DNA of 64,000 nucleotides, from NCBI GenBank assembly GCA_964592785.1, contig CAZQHU010000003.1:3901-67900 (forward strand), in the 5' to 3' direction. Positions 4,662 to 51,920 of the stretch are shown here, in pieces (position 1 is the first letter of the stretch; each line of letters starts with the position of its first letter). Under the pieces are notes generated by a model, which was not told the origin of the DNA, made no database searches, and was given only the letters and a program-made list of their open reading frames with translations. The stretch comes from an uncultured Gammaproteobacteria bacterium (GTDB taxonomy: Bacteria > Patescibacteriota > Patescibacteriia > Magasanikbacterales > UBA922). The translations under genes were made by a program, and so were the position numbers.

Positions 4662-5549
4662 TCACTTGATTCCCAAGTTTTTCAATTTCTCTATGATTCT
4701 TTTCCAATCATCTACAGCCAATTCTTCAGCCCTGATTTTTTCATTATTCAAAACATCTTTTAAAACATTTTTTACTTTTTCATTCTCAATTTTCAATCCA
4801 ACTGATAAATTTTTATGCAACTGTTTCCTCTTGTTTGCAAATCCAGCTCTCACTACTCTAAAAAACTCCTCATCACTAATCTTTTCCCTCCCCTCGTAGG
4901 GGAGGGAAGGGATGGGTTTTGCTTTATTGTTTTCATGTTTTAATGTTTTAATGTGTAAAATCGCACTATCCACTTTCGGACTGGGCCAAAAATTTCCTCG
5001 TGAAACAATATCCACAATTTTGGGCTCACTATAATATTGAACTGAAACTGCCAGTAAACTCATATCGCCAGGTTTTGAACAAATCCGTTCGGCCACTTCT
5101 TTTTGTACCATAATAGTAATTGATTCTGGTTTATTTTCCAATTCTAAAAGAGCGCGTAAAACATTGGAAGTAATTTGATAAGGAAGATTGGCTACAACTT
5201 TGTAATTTATAATTTGAAATTTGAAATTTGAAATTTGAGTGAGTGCATTTCCCCAAATGATTTCTAAATTTTTTAATTTCTTGATTTCTATTTCTTCTTG
5301 CCAATACTCCCTCAACTTTTTCTCAATTTCAAATGCTACTACTTGCCTCGCCTTTTCTGCCAGGGCAAAAGTAAGCACCCCAAAACCCGGCCCGATCTCG
5401 ATCACTGTATCAGTCTTAGCCACTCCCGCCGCCTCAATCATTTTTTTTATCGGCCAATCTTGAATAAGATAATTTTGACCATACTTCTTGCTGGGAGTAA
5501 GGTCGTATTTACTACAAAGAGATTTGAGGATTGTAGGAGTAAGGGACAT
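4662..5549 (-). CDS. rsmA: 16S rRNA (adenine1518/1519-N6)-dimethyltransferase RsmA/KsgA; contains an in-frame palindromic insert and a 7-nt x4 tandem repeat
   Basis: KsgA-like motifs (GQNYLI, EIGPGFGVLT, NLPY). Confidence 0.85.
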   Translation of the reverse strand: MSLTPTILKSLCSKYDLTPSKKYGQNYLIQDWPIKKMIEAAGVAKTDTVIEIGPGFGVLTFALAEKARQVVAFEIEKKLREYWQEEIEIKKLKNLEIIWGNALTQISNFKFQIINYKVVANLPYQITSNVLRALLELENKPESITIMVQKEVAERICSKPGDMSLLAVSVQYYSEPKIVDIVSRGNFWPSPKVDSAILHIKTLKHENNKAKPIPSLPYEGREKISDEEFFRVVRAGFANKRKQLHKNLSVGLKIENEKVKNVLKDVLNNEKIRAEELAVDDWKRIIEKLKNLGIK

Positions 5550-9740: not shown

Positions 9741-9743
9741 ATT

Positions 9744-9810
9744 GTCATCCTGAATTTATTTCAGGATCTTTTATTTTTAAGGGAGATGCTGAAACAAGTT
9801 CAGCATGACA
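9744..9810. repeat. Two-hairpin MITE-like element, copy 1 (GTCATCCTGAAtttaTTCAGGATC ... GATGCTGAAacaagTTCAGCATGAC)
   Basis: Near-identical to the copy at 33606-33698 and to the ends of 51796-51920. It lies immediately after the groEL stop. Confidence 0.75.
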
Positions 9811-16732: not shown

Positions 16733-16740
16733 ATTTTAAA

Positions 16741-17225
16741 TCCCCTCTAGAGAGGGGTGGCTCCGACGTCGCAGTCGGAGACGGGGTGTGTTACCGTTGG
16801 TTAGTGATATAATTTTCTATTGTATAAAGTACTGATTCAATATTTTTTCTTACTTCAGTTTCTGTAAATCTTAAAAATTTTAGGCCTTTATTTTCTAAAA
16901 ACTCTTGTCTCTGTTTATCGTAATCTGACTTCATATCATGACTAGCAAAACCATCTATTTCTATTGCTAACATTAATTTGGGGCAATAAAAGTCTACAAT
17001 ATAGTTGTGGATTGATTTTTGACGATGAAAGTCAAAACCCAACATTTGTTTATTTTTTAAATATTTCCAGAGTATTACTTCGCCTAGTGTGGAATGTTTG
17101 CGTAGTTCCCGGGCCTTTTGTTTTAATGATTGTTGGTAGTTAATAACTGGCATAATTTTGCAAACCACGGTCACACACCCCGCCCGCTCGAGCGGGCACC
17201 CCTCTCTAGAGGGGATTTTGTCGGT
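16741..17225. mobile_element. Putative mini mobile element: a DUF559 endonuclease gene flanked by about 55-bp structured terminal inverted repeats
   Basis: Left TIR (16742-16796): CCCCTCTAGAGAGGGGTG-[hairpin gctccgacgtcgcagtcggagac]-GGGGTGTGTTACCGTTGG. Right TIR (17163-17217, reverse complement): CCCCTCTAGAGAGGGGTG-[hairpin cccgctcgagcgggc]-GGGGTGTGTGACCGTGG. Confidence 0.6.
16791..17153 (-). CDS. DUF559 endonuclease-like protein (Vsr/restriction-endonuclease-like fold)
   Basis: GFDFHRQKSIHNYIVDFYCPKLMLAIEIDG...EFLENKGLKFLRF is typical DUF559. The ATG start MPVINYQQ was chosen; the track's GTG start lies inside the TIR. The stop codon is supplied by the inner end of the left TIR. Confidence 0.75.
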   Translation of the reverse strand: MPVINYQQSLKQKARELRKHSTLGEVILWKYLKNKQMLGFDFHRQKSIHNYIVDFYCPKLMLAIEIDGFASHDMKSDYDKQRQEFLENKGLKFLRFTETEVRKNIESVLYTIENYITNQR

Positions 17226-17390
17226 ATTTCCGACGTTTTTTTTATAGATAAATTATAGCATATTCAAGCTATTTTGTCAAGAGTGTTGATAACATTTAGA
17301 CAGAAATAGTGACAAGTTTTAAAAAATTTAATAAACTTTTCTATTCAGCTTAGGGCTGAATAAACGTTCCTTACAACGCAACCAAAAAGC

Positions 17391-17906
17391 ATGGAGGAAA
17401 CCATGGACAGAAACCAACTTCTCAAAAAGATCCAAACAAAGCTTCAAGAAGAAAGAAGCAAAAAAGAAAAAAGGGCTTTGTGGTTGAAATTGTTCAAGGC
17501 TTGTCGATGCCACCGAACTGATTTCATAGATCCAGAATATTTTCCCATCCATGATGAAGAAGGCGAATTCACCGAAAGAGACATACGCCCATATGTTGAG
17601 GAGTATGCCTTCCTCAATCCAGTCACTGGCTATGAAGCCGTTGAACAACTTCTAAAAGGAGGATATTATCTGCTTGAGATGAGGGACGGCCTACTCTACA
17701 TCGGACAGAAGCCCGAAGCAATTGAAAAGCATGAGCTGATAATCATCGGAGCGGTACGCGAAACTGATGATTACATGGCAGTCCCTATTTTCCGTACATC
17801 CAAGATCTTCAGAAGGCGCATAGCTGATTACTATTTCCTCCACTACACTTTCGACACCAACTGTCGCTTTTTGGTCTTCAAAGACAGGACCAGAACTAAT
17901 CCGTAG
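17391..17906 (+). CDS. Hypothetical protein, about 45% GC; possible cassette g
   Basis: GGAGG lies 4 nt upstream of the second ATG (17403). GC-rich palindromic mini-hairpins follow the stop. Confidence 0.5.
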   Translation: MEETMDRNQLLKKIQTKLQEERSKKEKRALWLKLFKACRCHRTDFIDPEYFPIHDEEGEFTERDIRPYVEEYAFLNPVTGYEAVEQLLKGGYYLLEMRDGLLYIGQKPEAIEKHELIIIGAVRETDDYMAVPIFRTSKIFRRRIADYYFLHYTFDTNCRFLVFKDRTRTNP

Positions 17907-18138
17907 CCCTCCACCCCGGCTGGCAGGGCCGTTCTCTCTGCCATTCCCACTCACCCCCCTTAATAAAGGGGGGCGAGGGGGGATGTTGACCAATATCCCT
18001 CCTAACCTCCCTTTACTAAGGGAGGAACCATGACCATCAAAAAACTCCCCCAACCTCTTAGTAAGAGGGGGACAATAAAACCGCCCTCACGGACGGTTTT
18101 AACTTATTAAACTTAGTTACTTAGTCAACTTAAAAAAC

Positions 18139-25677: not shown

Positions 25678-25745
25678 CTCAAGTGTTTATAAGTATTTTG
25701 TAAATAGTTGAGAATAAAAAATCCCGATTATATCGGGATTTTACT
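25678..25745 (+). repeat. Conserved cassette 3' module, copy A (caagtgtttataagtattttgtaaatagttgagaataaaaaat plus terminator hairpin)
   Basis: Near-identical to 35240-35306 and 35848-35925. The hairpin sequences differ but the structure is conserved (cccgattatatcggg). Confidence 0.8.
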
Positions 25746-31641: not shown

Positions 31642-33099
31642 ATGAACTGGTTCAAAAAATATTACCCTCTTCTTATCATTATTCTACTTGGCCTAATACT
31701 CCGTCTTTTTGTAATAATTAAGTATGGTTCATTCTGGGATGACGAAATGTTCAGCTTTGTTTTTAGTCAAAAATCCTGGACAGAAAGTTTTGTTTATTGG
31801 CTCTATGAAACCAACCCGCCTCTGCACTTGTTGTTTTTGAAAATTTGGTTTTATTTTTTACCGGCTAGCGAATTTTTCGCCAGATTACCCAGTCTCTTAT
31901 TTGCTCTCGCCACCATACCTCTCGTCTATTTACTGGGAAAAAATTGGCAAGGAAAAATGACCGGCTATATCACCGCTTTTTATCTAGCTCTTCATCCTTA
32001 CCATATCTTTTGGTCAGCTACTGCCAGGACTTATACCCTAACAATTTTTTTAACTACCGGCGCAGTTTATTTTTTTTATAAAATATTTTTTCTGGAAGAA
32101 AAAAATAGAAAAAATTATTTGGGTCTGGCCATTTTCAACCTACTCTCACTATTATCACACTTATCCGCTAGCTCAATCATACTCACACAAATTTTGTTAT
32201 TGCTCTACAAAAAAACAAATTTCAAACTCTGGTGGCAGATAAATATTACCCCTCTAATTCTCGCTGGCTCTTGGCTAATCTCTTCGCTTTGGTTGAAAAT
32301 GTCTAATCTAAATAAATCGTGGTTTTTCAATTTGAATCATGATCTAGATACATTTCTCACTCCTCTATCTAATATTTTCCTCGGCGTCTACCCACCAAAA
32401 ATGACTTTACTTTTCATTATTCCCCTACTAATTATTTTGTTTATTTTTCTCAGTAAAAAAATTAAAGAAAAAGCAGAAAAAACTTTTGTCATCTTGGCTA
32501 TCGCTCTCCTACCGATGTTTATTTCTTTTTTCTTAAATCTCTGGCATATCAAATTTTTCCTAGTCAGTTTGCCTTTTTGGCTCTTATTGGTAGCTGGAGC
32601 TTTTGCAGAAGTTTTGAAAAACAAAAAATTAATTTTTATAGCCTTGGGATTATTTTGTAGTAGTGGACTTATTTTTTTATGGTCTTTCTTGCCACTGACA
32701 AACTGGCAACCACTGCAAAAATATCTCACTACAAATTTTAATCCAGCCAAAAAACAAGCTCTGGTTTATAACAACTACATATTGGACCCACAAATAGAAA
32801 AGTACTTGAAACCGCCACAAGAAAACATGCCTTTTGTAATAGAATCAGAAAAAAATTGGGAAGATTGGGCAGTAAAAAGAAATTATCTTTATATTAAATA
32901 CTCCCAAGAACAGCTAACAAATTGGCTATCAAAAAATAATTTATTTGCCAATCAAGAAATCTTTCTTATTCAGGGCGAATATGATTACATGACCAATTTA
33001 AATAAATTACTGGAAAAAAATAATTATATTTTAGAGCAACCTGCTTGGCGTTTGCCTATTCTCGGTCGTTATTATCTCTATCACTATGTCAAAAATTGA
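31642..33099 (+). CDS. GT39/GT83-family glycosyltransferase (ArnT/PMT-like), polytopic
   Basis: N-terminal DDE-containing loop, more than 10 TM helices, and the family architecture. Confidence 0.65.
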   Translation: MNWFKKYYPLLIIILLGLILRLFVIIKYGSFWDDEMFSFVFSQKSWTESFVYWLYETNPPLHLLFLKIWFYFLPASEFFARLPSLLFALATIPLVYLLGKNWQGKMTGYITAFYLALHPYHIFWSATARTYTLTIFLTTGAVYFFYKIFFLEEKNRKNYLGLAIFNLLSLLSHLSASSIILTQILLLLYKKTNFKLWWQINITPLILAGSWLISSLWLKMSNLNKSWFFNLNHDLDTFLTPLSNIFLGVYPPKMTLLFIIPLLIILFIFLSKKIKEKAEKTFVILAIALLPMFISFFLNLWHIKFFLVSLPFWLLLVAGAFAEVLKNKKLIFIALGLFCSSGLIFLWSFLPLTNWQPLQKYLTTNFNPAKKQALVYNNYILDPQIEKYLKPPQENMPFVIESEKNWEDWAVKRNYLYIKYSQEQLTNWLSKNNLFANQEIFLIQGEYDYMTNLNKLLEKNNYILEQPAWRLPILGRYYLYHYVKN

Positions 33100-34006
33100 T
33101 CAGCGTGAAATTGAGTTAATTAAAGCATTTGTGTTGAAAAAACCACGCGAATTTTTTATTGCCCACCCGGAGTACCAAGTTAGCAAGTTAGCAAGTGAAC
33201 AAGTGAATAAGTTGATTAAAAAACGTACTCGTGGTATTCCACTCGCTTATTTACTTGGCAAAAAAGAATTTTTTGGGTTGAATTTTACAGTAAATAAAAA
33301 TGTTTTGATTCCTCGCCCAGAGACAGAACTGATGGTAGAAAAAGTTTTACAAAAAATCAAGAATTCAAAAAACCAAGAAATTATTTTAATTGATATTGGA
33401 ACTGGTACTGGATGTATTCCCATTTCAATCATAAAAACAATTAACCCCACCCTACCCTCCCCTACAAGGGGAGGGAAAGGGAGAGGTTTCGCCGTCTTTG
33501 CCACGGACATCTCCCAACCAGCTTTGTCTGTCGCCAAAAAAAACGCCAAAAAACATAATGTAAAAATAAAATTCCTTCACGGCAACTTGCTTGAACCATT
33601 TCTCTGTCATCCTGAATTTATTTCAGGATCTTTCCCAAAATCAAACCTGCTAAAAAGTATATCTGGAGAAAAGATGCTGAAACAAGTTCAGCATGACATC
33701 ATCATCACCGCCAACCTCCCCTATCTTACACCTCAACAACTTAAACAAGAACCCTCAATAAAACACGAACCTCACCTCGCCCTCGTCGCTGGCAAAGATG
33801 GACTAAAATACTACCGAGAACTTCTTAAACAAATTAATATATTGACTTCGGACTACAGACTACAGACTACAGTTTTTTGCGAAATAAATCCGGAACAAAC
33901 AAAAAATATAAAACTCCTTACTAAAAAAATTCTTCCCCAAGCCAAAATAACCCTCCACCAAGATCTGGCTGGAAAAAATAGAGTGGTGGAGATAATTCCC
34001 CTCTAG
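33086..34006 (+). CDS. prmC: Release factor glutamine N5-methyltransferase PrmC/HemK; contains two in-frame palindromic-element insertions
   Basis: SAM motif IDIGTGTG and NLPY (a variant of NPPY). Classic prfA...prmC linkage. Confidence 0.85.
   Translation: MSKIDQREIELIKAFVLKKPREFFIAHPEYQVSKLASEQVNKLIKKRTRGIPLAYLLGKKEFFGLNFTVNKNVLIPRPETELMVEKVLQKIKNSKNQEIILIDIGTGTGCIPISIIKTINPTLPSPTRGGKGRGFAVFATDISQPALSVAKKNAKKHNVKIKFLHGNLLEPFLCHPEFISGSFPKSNLLKSISGEKMLKQVQHDIIITANLPYLTPQQLKQEPSIKHEPHLALVAGKDGLKYYRELLKQINILTSDYRLQTTVFCEINPEQTKNIKLLTKKILPQAKITLHQDLAGKNRVVEIIPL
33606..33698. repeat. Two-hairpin MITE-like element, copy 2; 93 nt, inserted in frame in prmC
   Basis: It encodes LCHPEFISGSFPKSNLLKSISGEKMLKQVQHD between the SAM-binding region and the NLPY motif. 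Confidence 0.75.
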
Positions 34007-34150
34007 AGAGGGGTGCCCGCTCAAGCGGGTGGGGTGTGTTACAATAGCAAAAATTAAAAACAACGGTCACACACCCCGTCTGCCTCCCGCCTGCCATGCC
34101 TGGCACTGGCGGGCAGGGCGAAGGCATACACCCCTCTCCAGAGGGGATCG
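34001..34150. mobile_element. Cargo-less TIR pair (MITE) of the DUF559-element family
   Basis: CCCCTCTAGAGAGGGGTG-hairpin-GGGGTGTGTTAC, an 18-nt spacer, then CGGTCACACACCCC-long hairpin-CACCCCTCTCCAGAGGGG. Confidence 0.6.
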
Positions 34151-34164
34151 CCTCTTGACAAACC

Positions 34165-34193
34165 CATAAAAATAAGCTATAATGCCCTGTTCT
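34165..34193 (+). promoter_or_regulatory. Consensus promoter TTGACA-17-TATAAT of cassette d
   Basis: TTGACAaacccataaaaataagcTATAAT. Confidence 0.65.
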
Positions 34194-34393
34194 TTGAAAA
34201 TTTTCAAACGGCTTATAAATTAGCCAATTTTTGACTAATGTCTAGGCCGTTTGAGGCTTAGGGAACAGAAAAACTACTGTTGAAGGAGTGGCCTGTATAG
34301 GGGGCAACTACCGAGACCTTTTTGAAGGTCATTACAGCAAGTTTCTGTTTTCCCGACTTCCTGTTCCGCCCGAGGCGGACAAGAGGAGGTACC

Positions 34394-35161
34394 ATGCCCA
34401 GTTTCTCCAACAAGTTCCTGAAAGTGGAGAGCGACCGCTCTCCGGTGGGACAGCGGACCCGTCTGCTGGTCCTCTGGTCATACTTCATGGCCATTCTCCT
34501 GGGTGGCCTGTGGCTGATGCCCAGCTCGATGGCAGTGGCGAACCTGATCCTGATGGGTTTGAACACCCTCATCTTCGCCCGCTGGGTGTCCAAGAATGGG
34601 GTGGATTACTACCCCAAGAAGGAAAACAGAAAATACCCCCCGTTTCTTCCGAGATGGGGAGAGGGTACGCGTCGGTACTACTTCGTACCGGCGATCATGA
34701 CCAGCACGATCTGGTCGGCAGTGTTTTTCGGCTGGAACACCTGGTTCAGCGAAAACTTGTTGTGGATTGTTTTGGGTGTTATGTGCATCCTTCTCGCCAT
34801 CTTTCTGGTCCCCTACCTGTGGGGTAAGAGGGCATCCAGGAAAAGCAAGAGATTCATGGCCCAGCAAGACGAGGAGAGACGAAAGCAGAAGGAGATCGAC
34901 GAGCTGATTCAAGCGGCGATGGGAAGGAAGGAACTCGAGATTTACGAGAGGGAGAAAGAGTTCCTTCGTGACCTGGCAGTAATCATCGCCAACTTCCACT
35001 ACGAAAAGGGAAGAAAGCCCTCGAAGAGGGACGCCGAACTCCGGCAGAAACTCGAGGCGATCCTCGAGTACTTCGTCGGCCCGAGCGAGGCCGAGGCCAT
35101 GGTCGCCGAGGAGCTCTACCGCCTCACTCGTGAGGCGAAGAAGGCCACGGTGGCCACTTAG
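34394..35161 (+). CDS. GC-rich (about 57%) membrane protein of 255 aa: about 4 TM helices plus a charged coiled-coil C-terminus (cassette d)
   Basis: GAGGAGG lies 5 nt upstream of ATG 34394. The overlapping track ORFs 34258-34999 on other frames are GC artefacts. gttcgttcttt follows the stop. Confidence 0.6.
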   Translation: MPSFSNKFLKVESDRSPVGQRTRLLVLWSYFMAILLGGLWLMPSSMAVANLILMGLNTLIFARWVSKNGVDYYPKKENRKYPPFLPRWGEGTRRYYFVPAIMTSTIWSAVFFGWNTWFSENLLWIVLGVMCILLAIFLVPYLWGKRASRKSKRFMAQQDEERRKQKEIDELIQAAMGRKELEIYEREKEFLRDLAVIIANFHYEKGRKPSKRDAELRQKLEAILEYFVGPSEAEAMVAEELYRLTREAKKATVAT

Positions 35162-35180
35162 ACACTGTTCGTTCTTTAGA

Positions 35181-35232
35181 GGGGCGCCGACCGGTTGAGT
35201 TGAGATTTACTTCTCCTCCCGGTCGGCGCCCC
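35181..35232 (+). repeat. Conserved 3' hairpin of cassette d (14-bp stem GGGGCGCCGACCGG / CCGGTCGGCGCCCC)
   Basis: Cassette e carries GTCCGACCGG/CCGGTCGGAC, a compensatory variant, and shares the loop start ttgagtt. Confidence 0.7.
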
Positions 35233-35239
35233 GATGTAA

Positions 35240-35306
35240 TCAAGTGTTTGTAAAATATTTTGTAAATAGTTGAAAATAAAAAATCCGCTGATAAGGCGGT
35301 TTTTTT
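35240..35306 (+). repeat. Conserved cassette 3' module, copy B, plus terminator
   Basis: tcaagtgtttgtaaaatattttgtaaatagttgaaaataaaaaat-CCGCTGataaGGCGG-ttttttt. Confidence 0.8.
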
Positions 35307-35408: not shown

Positions 35409-35747
35409 ATGGCAAATAATTATCACTTGTCTGGTCCTTTTTCCTTCGGTATCCTATCTCCAAAGAACAAGGAGGAAAAGTACAGTATTTTCTTCCTGTC
35501 AATTCTTAGGGGCGACGAAGTGCACCGAGCCTATCTCTGCTACTCCAAGCAACAAGTTCGAAACGTGTTTGACCAGTTCAGACCTTGTATTGCACCAGAC
35601 GAACTCAAGATAGCGGAAGATTTCGTAACCCATAACCAGCACGTACCCGAATTCTCGAACCACAAGATGAGGGAATACAACGGACGAGAGGCCGAAGTGT
35701 TCACCGCGCTCATGTCCACTGGGCACTACGCAAGCATTGCCAACTGA
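35409..35747 (+). CDS. GC-rich small protein of 112 aa (cassette e)
   Basis: AGGAGG lies 8 nt upstream of the ATG. A tttcgttctttag motif and a hairpin follow the stop. Confidence 0.55.
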   Translation: MANNYHLSGPFSFGILSPKNKEEKYSIFFLSILRGDEVHRAYLCYSKQQVRNVFDQFRPCIAPDELKIAEDFVTHNQHVPEFSNHKMREYNGREAEVFTALMSTGHYASIAN

Positions 35748-35792
35748 CCATCCGCCCGAGTCAGGGCAAACCAAATTGTTTCGTTCTTTAGC

Positions 35793-35841
35793 GGGTCCGA
35801 CCGGTTGAGTTAATGCCTCCTTGGCATTCTCCCGGTCGGAC
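35793..35841 (+). repeat. Conserved 3' hairpin of cassette e
   Basis: GTCCGACCGG-ttgagtt...-CCGGTCGGAC. Confidence 0.65.
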
Positions 35842-35847
35842 AATCCA

Positions 35848-35925
35848 ATCAAATGTTTGTAAAAATTATTTTGTAAATAGTTGAGAATAAAAAATCACTT
35901 AATAATCTAAGTGATTTTTTATTTT
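35848..35925 (+). repeat. Conserved cassette 3' module, copy C, plus terminator
   Basis: atcaaatgtttgtaaaaattattttgtaaatagttgagaataaaaaat-CACTTaataatctAAGTG-tttttt. Confidence 0.8.
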
Positions 35926-36172
35926 TTAGAACGACAATTGGCTGGGGTTTGGGGCCGCCAACCTGTTTGAGCTAGAAGTGCTTGATGGATATGTATATTA
36001 TTAGTATGGCGAGTCTTGGCGGCCCCAAAACTTTTTTGTTACTTTTTTGGTTACAAAAAAGTAAAGAGTGATTATTTTGTCATAAACTTCGGCAAACTCT
36101 CCTGGCCTACGGGCCACCCTCTCTTGGAAAGAGAGGGATGACAAACATCCACCTATATTTTTATTTTTTGTT

Positions 36173-44151: not shown

Positions 44152-45006
44152 TCAGTCCTCTTGACCGAGCGGGAAAAACTTCCAGACCATCTCAGGTGGA
44201 GGTGGATAGCCGAGTCCAGTCCAGTAGTTGCGATAGCAGAGAGTTTTCTCATCGGACACAGCCAGCCTGAATTGAACACACCTCACGTCGTACCCTTCGA
44301 AAGGCAAACGTCTGCAAATCTTGAAATTCTCTGCTCCCAAGTTCAAAGCCTGCTTCATCCGCAGGAAAAGATCCGGCTTGTGACGTATGATGGCCAGAAG
44401 GATCGCCACCCCCTGCACCACCCCAAGAGGACGAGAGTCACTCATAATGGGCGACCTCGTGGCCTCGCGCCAGGATTTGGCCGTTGGGTTCGGGAAATGG
44501 CCCATAGTGTCCGCTAGTGTTGGATAGAATGCCATAACCCCCGCGGGCATTTCGGCATCTATCTGGAGATCTTCACCCACTTCGTACTTGCGGTCCTCAG
44601 ACAGTTCCAAGCCGGCCGCTTTCACCAAGTCCTGAACAGTCACGCCCGGAAGGCAATGGAAAAGGAGAGGCATCTCTCCATCCCCAAACACCGCTCCGAT
44701 ATCGGTGATGAACTGCTGGAGTTCCTGCCCCCCTTTCCGACCAAATTCCGGCTGAATGAGGTTGAGCGCCTCTTCGACCGAGAGCAAATGGGGGGTGTAC
44801 TTTTCGCCCCAGATATCCCTCTTCCACCAATCCTGCACGGCGCTGACCACGCAGTTCACCAAGGACTCCCTGAGGACAGCCTTGGCGTCGATCGCCGCCT
44901 GCACCACCTCACGGGGGGCATGTTTGGCCACCAGCTTCATCACCTTGGCGAACTCGTCGGCCTGACCAGCAGAAACCGCGCTTTCTCCGTCCCTTTTCAT
45001 GACCAT
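44152..45006 (-). CDS. GC-rich (about 58%) hypothetical protein of 284 aa (cassette h)
   Basis: Long ORF in a GC island. gccgttcctttcc follows the stop. Overlapping track ORFs on other frames are GC artefacts. Confidence 0.55.
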   Translation of the reverse strand: MVMKRDGESAVSAGQADEFAKVMKLVAKHAPREVVQAAIDAKAVLRESLVNCVVSAVQDWWKRDIWGEKYTPHLLSVEEALNLIQPEFGRKGGQELQQFITDIGAVFGDGEMPLLFHCLPGVTVQDLVKAAGLELSEDRKYEVGEDLQIDAEMPAGVMAFYPTLADTMGHFPNPTAKSWREATRSPIMSDSRPLGVVQGVAILLAIIRHKPDLFLRMKQALNLGAENFKICRRLPFEGYDVRCVQFRLAVSDEKTLCYRNYWTGLGYPPPPEMVWKFFPLGQED

Positions 45007-51795: not shown

Positions 51796-51920
51796 GTCAT
51801 CCCGAACTTGCCTGCCCGCCAATGCCAGGCAAGGCAGGTGAGTTTTAGGATCTCTCATAAAATAATTTTACTAAGCAAAACAATCTAACGGAAAGATGCT
51901 GAAATAAATTCAGCATGACA
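51796..51920. repeat. Two-hairpin MITE-like element, copy 3, with a nested GC-rich hairpin insertion; fills the dut-thyA spacer
   Basis: Ends GTCATCCcgaa... and ...GATGCTGAAataaaTTCAGCATGACA. The nested segment cttgcctgcccgccaatgccaggcaaggcagg resembles the inner hairpin of the 34001-34150 TIR. Confidence 0.65.

Follow-up and report, generated by a model that had tools for sequence, protein, structure and literature searches.

What is the gene-less pair of facing hairpin repeats that lies directly 3' of prmC in a Magasanikbacterales genome, and where does it come from? We addressed this question in a stretch of 64,000 nucleotides (nt) of contig CAZQHU010000003.1 (assembly GCA_964592785.1), hereafter the window, for which a first-pass annotation made from the letters alone had proposed a cargo-less miniature transposable element with inverted repeats (MITE) related to an element encoding a DUF559 protein. 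The feature, at 33998-34146 (149 nt; 33994-34150 including the AAWT flank), is a doublet without an open reading frame (ORF), in which 2 units, each built as CCCCTCTNNAGAGGGG-T-variable GC hairpin-GGGGTGTGTKAC, lie tail-to-tail facing one another. Very probably it is a deletion derivative of a unit-DUF559-unit cassette, an intact relative of which, with 2 tail-to-tail units around an ORF of 120 amino acids (aa), is found at 16738-17218 of the same window.

Structure of the doublet

Along the plus strand the doublet reads AATT CCCCTCTAGAGAGGGG T GCCCGCTCAAGCGGGT GGGGTGTGTTAC, followed by AATAGCAAAAATTAAAAACAACG and then by GTCACACACCCC GTCTGCC...(52 nt)...ATACA CCCCTCTCCAGAGGGG ATCG. Its left and right units are called U3 and U4, and its parts and right-hand border are the following:

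33994-33997, plus strand: AATT 5' lead of U3 (position frequencies over 161 units; covariance-model match 33994-34041)
33998-34013, plus strand: outer hairpin of U3, CCCCTCT-AG-AGAGGGG (motif scan)
34014-34030, plus strand: invariant T and inner hairpin of U3, GCCCGCT-CA-AGCGGGT (14/16 identical to the inner hairpin of the cassette 5' unit)
34031-34042, plus strand: G-box of U3, GGGGTGTGTTAC (motif scan)
34040-34068, plus strand: spacer TACAATAGCAAAAATTAAAAACAACGGTC, very probably what is left of the final 33 nt of a DUF559 ORF (alignment to the cassette)
34066-34077, minus strand: G-box of U4, GGGGTGTGTGAC on the minus strand (motif scan)
34078-34130, minus strand: enlarged inner hairpin of U4, 52 nt plus T (covariance-model match 34067-34150, 48.9 bits)
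34090-34117, plus strand: nested 28-nt palindrome CCTGCCATGCCTGGCACTGGCGGGCAGG (inverted second copy at 51811-51838, 26/28, 93%)
34131-34146, minus strand: outer hairpin of U4, CCCCTCT-GG-AGAGGGG on the minus strand (motif scan)
34155-34183, plus strand: sigma-70-type promoter TTGACA-17-TATAAT of the next gene, a GC-rich ORFan (12/12 match)

Motif scans of the window set these repeats far above chance. The 16-mer CCCCTCTAGAGAGGGG, with 3 mismatches or fewer, has 4 sites (16742, 17199, 33998 and 34131; 8 strand-matches against 0.18 expected), the 12-nt G-box GGGGTGTGTKAC also has 4 (16783 and 34031 on the plus strand, 17170 and 34066 on the minus strand; 0.28 expected), and the whole-unit pattern is matched exactly 3 times (0.00 expected). 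An unfiltered covariance-model search of all 64 kb, the model having been built from unrelated unit copies, returned exactly 4 units (E 2e-19 to 2e-8), arranged as 1 doublet and 1 DUF559 cassette, so that the sole unit copies besides the doublet bracket the DUF559 gene (16742-17214). The doublet and the cassette have their terminal inverted repeats in common, with 49-nt arms that are 92% complementary.

These scans and the covariance model place the 2 facing units within 3 nt of where the first-pass annotation had drawn them, and the ORF list agrees with it that no ORF of 50 aa or more lies between them besides antisense stop-to-stop artefacts. The gap between the two 12-nt boxes, given there as 18 nt, measures 23 nt (34043-34065), and the second inner hairpin, rightly described as enlarged, spans 52 nt instead of 50; it has an 8-bp stem with an A.G mismatch and a nested palindrome in its loop. 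A related hairpin had also been suspected near 51810-51840, and the 28-nt arms at 34090-34117 and 51811-51838 are indeed 93% complementary, with no further copy in any fetched locus. The 2 copies occupy the loops of 2 different hairpin-repeat families, which suggests that hairpin loops are preferred insertion points.

Folded as single-stranded DNA (ssDNA), the doublet forms a four-way junction on either strand (-49 and -50 kcal/mol; z -8.0 and -8.7), composed of an outer stem from the two 16-mers, the 2 inner hairpins and a central GGGGTGTGTKAC/GTMACACACCCC stem whose loop is the spacer. The upstream ORF (33086-34006) is prmC (PrmC_N E 6e-10; HemK structures E 7e-27), and its TAG stop (34004-34006) is made of a T plus the loop of the U3 outer hairpin. 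The promoter of the next gene, an ORFan with no match on record, begins 9 nt past the doublet, outside the element, and borders the intergenic niche on the right. The doublet occupies a harmless place between the promoter of the next gene and prmC, which now takes its stop codon from it.

Origin of the doublet from a DUF559 cassette

The intact cassette of the window and the promoter beside it comprise:

16738-16794, plus strand: U1, unit at the 3' end of the DUF559 gene (covariance model, 52.9 bits)
16791-17153, minus strand: DUF559 (Vsr-like PD-(D/E)XK) ORF of 120 aa, the cargo of the cassette (Pfam DUF559 E 6e-32)
17170-17218, minus strand: U2, unit 5' of the DUF559 gene (covariance model, 58.4 bits)
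17252-17280, minus strand: perfect TTGACA-17-TATAAT promoter outside the cassette, pointing into it (12/12)

Compared with this cassette in an alignment allowing 1 long gap, U3 is identical to the 5' unit at 43 of 46 positions, inner hairpin included; elsewhere, 140 of 161 units have distinct inner hairpins. Additionally, the spacer, as TACAATAGCAAAAATTAAAAACAACGGT, can be aligned in co-linear order to the final 33 nt of the DUF559 ORF (codons YTIENYITNQR-stop, cassette positions 395-427), a match that also falls at the expected end of the cassette. Its score of 15.5 was reached by 7 of 5000 shuffles and by 8 of 4943 random 29-mers from the window when scores anywhere in the cassette interior, on either strand, were counted. 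The YTIENYITNQR codons lie inside the DUF559 domain and are conserved (YTIENYLTHQR) in a second cassette from Magasanikbacteria, L108 (L numbers denote our loci). Because U3 is nearly identical to the cassette 5' unit and the spacer aligns to the 3' end of the ORF, we read the doublet as a deletion derivative and therefore as neither the descendant of a common ancestor nor an empty target. In the simplest reading of the alignment, cassette positions 47-394 (~350 nt), which begin directly past the 5' unit and end about 11 codons ahead of the stop, would have been lost; U4 gained the 28-nt palindrome in its inner-hairpin loop after the deletion. The first-pass annotation had left the choice between a derivative of the DUF559 element and a common ancestor, and the direction of descent can be resolved in favor of the former, the latter being rejected by the ORF remnant in the spacer together with the near-identical left unit.

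The reverse order of events would make the doublet an unoccupied homing or landing site that predates DUF559, the gene having inserted between existing units elsewhere. A homing model requires such sites, units exist and spread without DUF559, and in unit-seeded loci cargo-less doublets are approximately as common as cassettes. This alternative is nevertheless improbable, given the co-linear remnant of DUF559 C-terminal coding sequence in the spacer, which lies inside the Pfam domain and is conserved in L108, and given an inner hairpin in U3 nearly identical to that of the resident cassette.

In the intact cassette, U2 ends 19 nt ahead of the DUF559 ATG, and the TAA stop overlaps the G-box of U1. 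Its protein matches PF04480 with 110.1 bits (cut-off 20.6) up to residue 115 of 120, has DUF559 and REase_MTES_1575 as its only Pfam matches, and carries an acidic/His core (D54, E65, D67, H72) that is invariant in 6 DUF559 cassettes. The nearest solved structure is PDB 3hrl (E 5e-12), and the match to the Vsr-like homing endonuclease I-Bth0305I (3r3p) is weak (E 0.16); Vsr, DUF559 and I-Bth0305I have been placed in one PD-(D/E)XK clade (Steczkiewicz et al., PMC3424549). The cassettes of the window and L108 are 82.5% identical over 487 nt, a homology that ends at the outer hairpins, with different neighboring genes on both loci. Both boxes are identical between them; around a GTCGCA loop that is conserved, the inner stems have changed in a compensatory manner. 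The ratio of nonsynonymous to synonymous substitutions (dN/dS) between the 2 DUF559 genes is 0.042, at a dS of 1.77 that means saturated synonymous sites. Judged from this ratio and from boxes that are identical despite such a dS, the DUF559 gene and the unit boxes appear to be under selection. The window protein itself is on record only on a 1.1-kb Logan contig from SRR11845629 that is identical to the window.

A hairpin unit spread over many phyla

The first-pass annotation had treated the repeat as the terminal inverted repeat of a DUF559 element. This is too narrow a view, since the repeat does not belong to such an element of one genome alone, being a module of ~45 nt that occurs in more than 20 phyla, mostly solo. 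The exact pattern CCCCTCTNNAGAGGGGT-N14-44-GGGGTGTGT was found in 5 viral contigs of IMG/VR and, among species-representative genomes, in at least 119 stretches. More than 20 phyla are represented, with hosts among the Ignavibacteria, Cloacimonadota, Bacteroidota, Aminicenantes, Glassbacteria, Zixibacteria, Gemmatimonadales, Verrucomicrobiota, Bacillota (Pelosinus), Desulfobacterales, Planctomycetota, Saccharibacteria, Falkowbacteria, Magasanikbacteria and Nanoarchaeia. With near-identical boxes across phyla and phages, the unit is not specific to the genome of the window. Nor is the doublet a unique spacer, as further cargo-less facing doublets are found in Pelosinus (L013 and L022) and in other Magasanikbacteria (L054 and L114), and back-to-back pairs with one common outer hairpin also occur. 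In L114 (6438-8000) the doublet, just downstream of secY, is likewise flanked by ORFan stretches that are rich in GC and contain other hairpin repeats, a setting similar to the neighborhood in the window.

The consensus drawn from 161 units runs AAWT / CCCCTCT NN AGAGGGG / T / inner hairpin / GGGGTGTGT / T(A). Its AAWT lead, with T at -1 in 95% of the units, is followed by an outer hairpin of 7 C/G bp, the invariant T, the inner hairpin, which is variable in sequence and keeps its structure, and the G-box. Both conserved boxes are invariant across the family, with covariation between the G-box and the outer hairpin's G-arm. Length and sequence of the inner hairpin differ among units, yet its folding, at -0.45 kcal/mol per nt, is far stronger than that of shuffles (-0.18). 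Among 145 distinct copies, in an alignment that was itself fitted to the structure by the model, compensatory double changes affect 7 of 7 pairs of the inner helix and fill 229 cells, compared with 72 +/- 6 after shuffling (0 of 500 as high) and with more than 6-fold lower values in slid controls.

Units also reach into genes, 26 of them lying well inside long ORFs. Five Ignavibacteria proteins that are substrates of the type IX secretion system (T9SS) carry an in-frame unit in their C-terminal sorting domain, in each case at the same position, and other in-frame units belong to a nonribosomal peptide synthetase (NRPS), a Mur-ligase-like gene of a Nanoarchaeon and tgt of a Saccharibacterium, whose unit-coded residues 178-198 are a clean insertion relative to solved Tgt structures. 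The T9SS site (L051, L090 with 2 sites, L092 and L096) reads ..NPFNPxTxIxFxI / PLSRGV..GRGV / xLxVYD.., and there the unit seems to replace the usual 5-residue loop.

The unit folds on one strand, most likely as DNA

Read in the CCCC-to-GTGTGT sense, the inner hairpins contain features that are rare in their complementary form:

GNA triloops (often the very stable GCGAAGC): 32 in the sense reading; complementary equivalent TNC, 3
GNRA tetraloops: 5 in the sense reading; complementary equivalent TYNC, 0
G.T pairs: 27 in the sense reading; complementary equivalent A.C, 7
G.A / A.G mismatches: 75 in the sense reading; complementary equivalent C.T, 5

Because a double-stranded palindrome would be symmetric and the inner hairpins are not, this asymmetry indicates selection on a single strand. 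Orientation relative to genes shows no bias, with 51 antisense versus 42 sense units at gene 3' ends and 31 versus 32 at 5' ends; inside ORFs, 28 units are on the same strand and 27 on the opposite one, and in each cassette the 2 units are on opposite strands. This random orientation, the presence of ORF units on either strand, the opposite-strand units of the cassettes and the excess of GNA over GNRA loops favor single-stranded or extruded DNA over mRNA, and it is most likely as DNA that the fold has its effect. The units form a module of structured DNA that is strand-specific and under strong constraint.

The same data bear on 2 other explanations. If the unit encoded a structured RNA, such as a small RNA, a cis-regulator of DUF559 or a ribozyme-like motif, a strand-asymmetric fold with compensatory changes would be in keeping with it, as would the 5' unit, which is sense-oriented in the DUF559 leader downstream of a perfect promoter. 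However, Rfam 15, searched with both gathering and E-value cut-offs, gave no family at gathering threshold (the only match, anti-hemB, reached 31.9 bits vs 49.5 on a generic hairpin run), the 32 GNA triloops vs 5 GNRA tetraloops suggest DNA, the orientation to genes is random, and the 3' unit of each cassette would be antisense in the mRNA. We consider such an RNA highly improbable, and a function at the RNA level was set aside on the random orientation and the DNA-type loops.

Hardly more probable is a role in host regulation, in which the sequence separating prmC from the next gene would act as a bidirectional terminator or insulator or as a set of mRNA-stabilizing hairpins, its recurrence being due to selection for such a role. 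The doublet does lie exactly between the stop codon and the next promoter, its GC hairpins are very stable, and the U2 outer hairpin followed by ATTTTG on the plus strand scores as terminator-like, but an intrinsic terminator scan of 33800-34400 returned 0 terminator-like sites, and neither doublet unit is followed by a T-run. Moreover, units have no orientation preference at gene 3' or 5' ends and occur in frame within coding regions, and near-identical boxes in more than 20 phyla and phages would be unexpected of convergent terminators. The absent T-run and the lack of orientation bias also led us to discard the terminator reading as such.

Units bracket DUF559 genes across phyla

A profile search of the unit-seeded loci found DUF559 in 6 of 124 plus the window, always between or beside facing units, the hosts being candidate phyla radiation (CPR) bacteria, Ignavibacteriae, Bacteroidota, Verrucomicrobiota (with tandem cassettes) and an unclassified bacterium. 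Where a facing pair carries cargo, this is DUF559 in 7 of 8 cases and a NUDIX gene in the eighth. We also assembled a DUF559-seeded set of 80 metagenome loci from the Joint Genome Institute (JGI; 47-60% identity), which together with 6 genome cassettes made 86, and called their flanking hairpins with an explicit stem finder. An exact doublet-type unit is present on at least 1 side in 19 of the 80 metagenome loci, and a C/G hairpin unit of the same grammar lies within 160 nt in 69 of the 86. These units fall into types A (CCCCTCT..GGGGTGTGT), B (CCCCTCC..GGGGTGGGT), C (CCCCCTT..AGGGGGTTGT) and D, and the type is the same on both sides in 35 of the 39 loci that could be typed on both. Unit density is 5.4/kb beside the DUF559 gene versus 0.075/kb more than 400 nt away (~72-fold). 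Across phyla, small DUF559 genes usually lie between 2 units of the same type.

The units are also visible in predicted proteins. From a scan of 1.84 billion proteins we examined 125 single-domain DUF559 representatives, in which the hairpin-coded motif P[LSP]x1-2[REKG]G occurs 84 times per 4193 aa of called N- and C-terminal extensions and 0 times per 14731 aa of cores. The phage collection yielded only 3 weak DUF559 matches.

Regarding mobility, the homology of several metagenome cassettes is limited to the cassette length, and the same architecture is present in the cultured hosts Picosynechococcus sp. PCC 7002 (pAQ6), Pseudanabaena ABRG5-3 and Deinococcus psychrotolerans. In the last of these, a cassette of ~490 nt with inverted ends of ~50 nt lies between paaD and paaZ, genes that in Deinococcus sp. 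QL22 are adjacent and separated by an unrelated 83-nt spacer. The 2 genomes represent a filled and an empty site, although flanks that are 78% identical leave the junctions short of base precision. The behavior of the cassette is that of a discrete insertion.

Some individual loci deserve mention. Lineage-specific versions of the hairpin-plus-G-box flank DUF559 in PCC 7002 pAQ6 (L206), Pseudanabaena (L207) and D. psychrotolerans (L208); in L208 the polarity is reversed, with the hairpin gene-proximal and the box distal, and in PCC 7002 the DUF559 gene adjoins PIN-domain and DUF1156 genes. The DUF559 protein of PCC 7002 has the accession WP_041444102.1, and that of Deinococcus WP_124874550.1. 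A metagenome-assembled genome (MAG) of Lacunisphaera (L011, 5700-6571) has tandem DUF559 cassettes and several unit doublets, and in this GC-rich verrucomicrobial genome the boxes are unchanged despite a very different base composition.

A possible mechanism and the evidence against it

As a tentative explanation, we propose that DUF559, a Vsr/I-Bth0305I-type PD-(D/E)XK nuclease, would recognize and nick or cut folded units. In such a scheme the units would act on one strand as DNA, a single-stranded or extruded unit folding into 2 hairpins side by side, whose conserved features outside Watson-Crick pairing are GNA triloops, a T.G at the junction and a G.A close to the inner stem's base, and a doublet forming a four-way junction. 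Candidate points of recognition would be the invariant T opposite the first G of the G-box (T.G), the G.A mismatches and the four-way junction of the doublet. A T.G mismatch is the classical substrate of Vsr. Repair of the break or nick, templated by another copy, would spread units, doublets and the gene, and any doublet would serve as a landing pad with 2 short homology arms for the gene. The doublet at 34 kb, with no nuclease of its own, would be non-autonomous and could be acted on in trans by the cassette at 17 kb. We would put this sequence of recognition, nicking and repair somewhat short of an even chance. The broader version, in which DUF559 proteins would be the trans-acting nucleases of a cross-phylum selfish system whose mobile 45-nt DNA module (2 hairpins plus G-box) folds on one strand, spreads by structure-specific nicking and templated repair, inserts in frame and crosses phylum and domain borders, and which would be the PD-(D/E)XK counterpart of REPIN/RAYT, we hold with a little less confidence still. 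The identity of the feature and its mechanism, taken together as one account, appear reasonably likely.

Several observations weigh against this account. The family in the window is small, with 1 doublet and 1 cassette, and a model of simple copy-and-paste from one master would not predict a hypervariable inner hairpin. Most units are solo, solo copies far outnumbering cassettes, and an ordinary NUDIX gene has 5 units accumulated around it. We saw no target-site duplication in any unit arrangement, whether in the window, the 7 cassettes or the filled site of Deinococcus; the flanks of the doublet (AATT...ATCG) are not a direct repeat, and those of the cassettes (AAAT...ATTT) are an extension of the inverted repeat. 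Among the loci we found no clean empty/filled DNA pair for a solo unit. The sole orthologous pair, at 67% identity, sets the solo unit of L102 (5532-5572) against unrelated DNA of nearly equal length in L060, which could reflect short-patch replacement rather than insertion, or just divergence. Finally, DUF559 protein identity is 51.5% within and 48.5% between unit types (0 of 2000 permutations), and because this difference is very small, sequence-specific co-evolution of DUF559 and unit is weak and not demonstrated; the link between them is positional.

Part of this evidence would also fit REP-like units (REP, repetitive extragenic palindromic) mobilized by another enzyme, of the Y1/HUH RAYT or IS200 type or of the IS110 type, with DUF559 as a passenger or landing beside units. 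The strand-specific hairpin signature is typical of the substrates of HUH enzymes, which act on ssDNA, and the dominance of solo copies, the weak coupling of hairpin type to DUF559 clade and the units bracketing a NUDIX gene are all compatible with it. Against this, units are enriched 72-fold next to DUF559 genes in different phyla and match in type on the two sides, and cassette homologies end exactly at the outer hairpins. Furthermore, no HUH gene was seen beside units in the 124 loci, though no systematic HUH search was made, and the family has no GTAG/CGTC tag such as REPs have (PMC3733652). We consider another mobilizing enzyme unlikely.

Comparison with known systems

The closest analogue is REPIN/RAYT (Bertels & Rainey 2011, PMC3116915; Di Nocera 2013, PMC3733652), which likewise has short GC-rich imperfect palindromes, inverted doublets with a short spacer, decayed or solo singlets, an enzyme gene between 2 inverted repeats and a substrate that folds as ssDNA. 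The enzyme, however, is a Vsr-like PD-(D/E)XK nuclease here and an HUH Y1 transposase in RAYT. The unit differs too, as its consensus begins AAWT-CCCCTCT in place of a GTAG/CGTC tag at the 5' end of the palindrome, and it has 2 hairpins plus a G-box, with an inner hairpin that is hypervariable even within a genome. While REPs are extragenic, lineage-specific and present in near-identical copies, the units occur inside genes, have 140 of 161 inner hairpins distinct and have boxes common to more than 20 phyla. We class units and DUF559 as a miniature palindromic repeat system with a resident enzyme gene, of a different enzyme class and with a far wider host range than REPIN/RAYT. A model based on IS200/IS605 ends was dropped, the units being inverted rather than on one strand.

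The MITE label given in the first-pass annotation fits only loosely. Like bacterial MITEs (PMC10969869), the doublet is small and non-coding, has terminal inverted repeats shared with its parent and seems to be a deletion derivative of a gene-bearing element. Nonetheless, it is not a classical MITE, because it has no target-site duplication and its parent is without a recognized transposase. Its terminal repeat is also an independent solo module, and there is only 1 doublet in the window.

Free-standing EDxHD homing endonuclease genes, e.g., I-Bth0305I and the "fractured gene" endonucleases (PMC3239194, PMC2677866), offer another parallel, in that they are small stand-alone nuclease genes of the same clade (PMC3424549), although the similarity to I-Bth0305I itself is the weak one reported above. 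Presence and absence at paaD-paaZ of Deinococcus resembles their distribution, and spread by break repair is plausible. Unlike them, the DUF559 gene lies outside introns, inteins and conserved host genes, and it carries its own structured inverted repeats. Rickettsia palindromic elements (RPEs; summarized in PMC10969869) also place palindromes in frame in unrelated housekeeping genes, where they are tolerated as peptide loops. Their length is ~100-150 bp, their occurrence is limited to Rickettsia, and no enzyme gene accompanies them, whereas the present unit has ~45 nt and occurs in many phyla.

The attC sites of integrons have conserved ends and a variable center that is conserved in structure, and they are recognized as a folded single strand with unpaired bases. 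The unit resembles them in its conserved ends and in a center kept in structure and not in sequence. It lacks RYYYAAC/GTTRRRY core sites, an integrase and a promoterless cassette array, the neighboring ORFans having promoters of their own. A model based on integron attC ends was abandoned on the missing core sites and integrase.

DUF559 has a solved structure and no assigned role, in a family that counts 20,274 representatives of 50%-identity clusters at E<=1e-3. In the full-text literature we found no paper that links DUF559 to repeats or hairpins, subscription-only journals being outside this search, so a prior description is possible; a 2024 MITE review makes no mention of endonuclease-borne elements. 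In practice, units corrupt gene calls through spurious N- or C-terminal extensions rich in PLxRG-type peptides, and they add peptide loops to real proteins (Tgt, PrmC, T9SS tails). If the link between nuclease and hairpin is functional, it would reveal a new enzyme class behind the proliferation of miniature repeats, explain a repeat "grammar" that extends from CPR bacteria and DPANN archaea to cyanobacteria and Deinococcus, and provide a structure-specific DNA nuclease of possible practical use, with Picosynechococcus PCC 7002 pAQ6 and Deinococcus as tractable test systems. For the window, it would account for the odd GC-rich palindromes at gene borders and inside prmC.

Other repeats and islands in the window

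A second, unrelated hairpin-repeat family (TGTCATCCTGAA..TTCAGGATC paired with GATGCTGAA..TTCAGCATGACA) has copies at 9742-9810, 33605-33698 and 51807-51920. The copy at 33605-33698 is in frame inside prmC and makes up most of residues 173-206, where T. maritima HemK has about 10. A variant unit (CCCTCCCCT..AGGGGAGGG plus GGGATGGGTT) is present at 33443-33478 on the minus strand and 4883-4918 on the plus strand, and its prmC copy encodes an in-frame insert of 14 aa (NPTLPSPTRGGKGRG), which HemK structures lack.

Variant hairpin-plus-G-box units (CCCCCCTTaataAAGGGGGG cga GGGGGGATGT; CCCTCTCTTtccAAGAGAGGG..) at 17954-17990 and 36094-36141 (minus strand) mark the far ends of GC-rich ORFan islands that start beside U2 and U4, with weak covariance matches (E 0.27 and 2.3). 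Island ORFs at 17391-17906, 34394-35161, 35409-35747 and 44152-45006 have no Pfam match, and the islands contain 46-58% GC versus mostly 30-45% in the rest of the window; they are probably foreign cassettes. The TTGACA-17-TATAAT promoter at 34155-34183 is directly upstream of the 34-kb island, and the one near the 17-kb island (17252-17280) points away from the island ORF. A conserved 3' module of ~140 nt, consisting of a stem-loop plus ..TTTGTAAATAGTTGA(A/G)AATAAAAAAT.., is found at 35163-35300 and 35770-35910 and partly at 25690.

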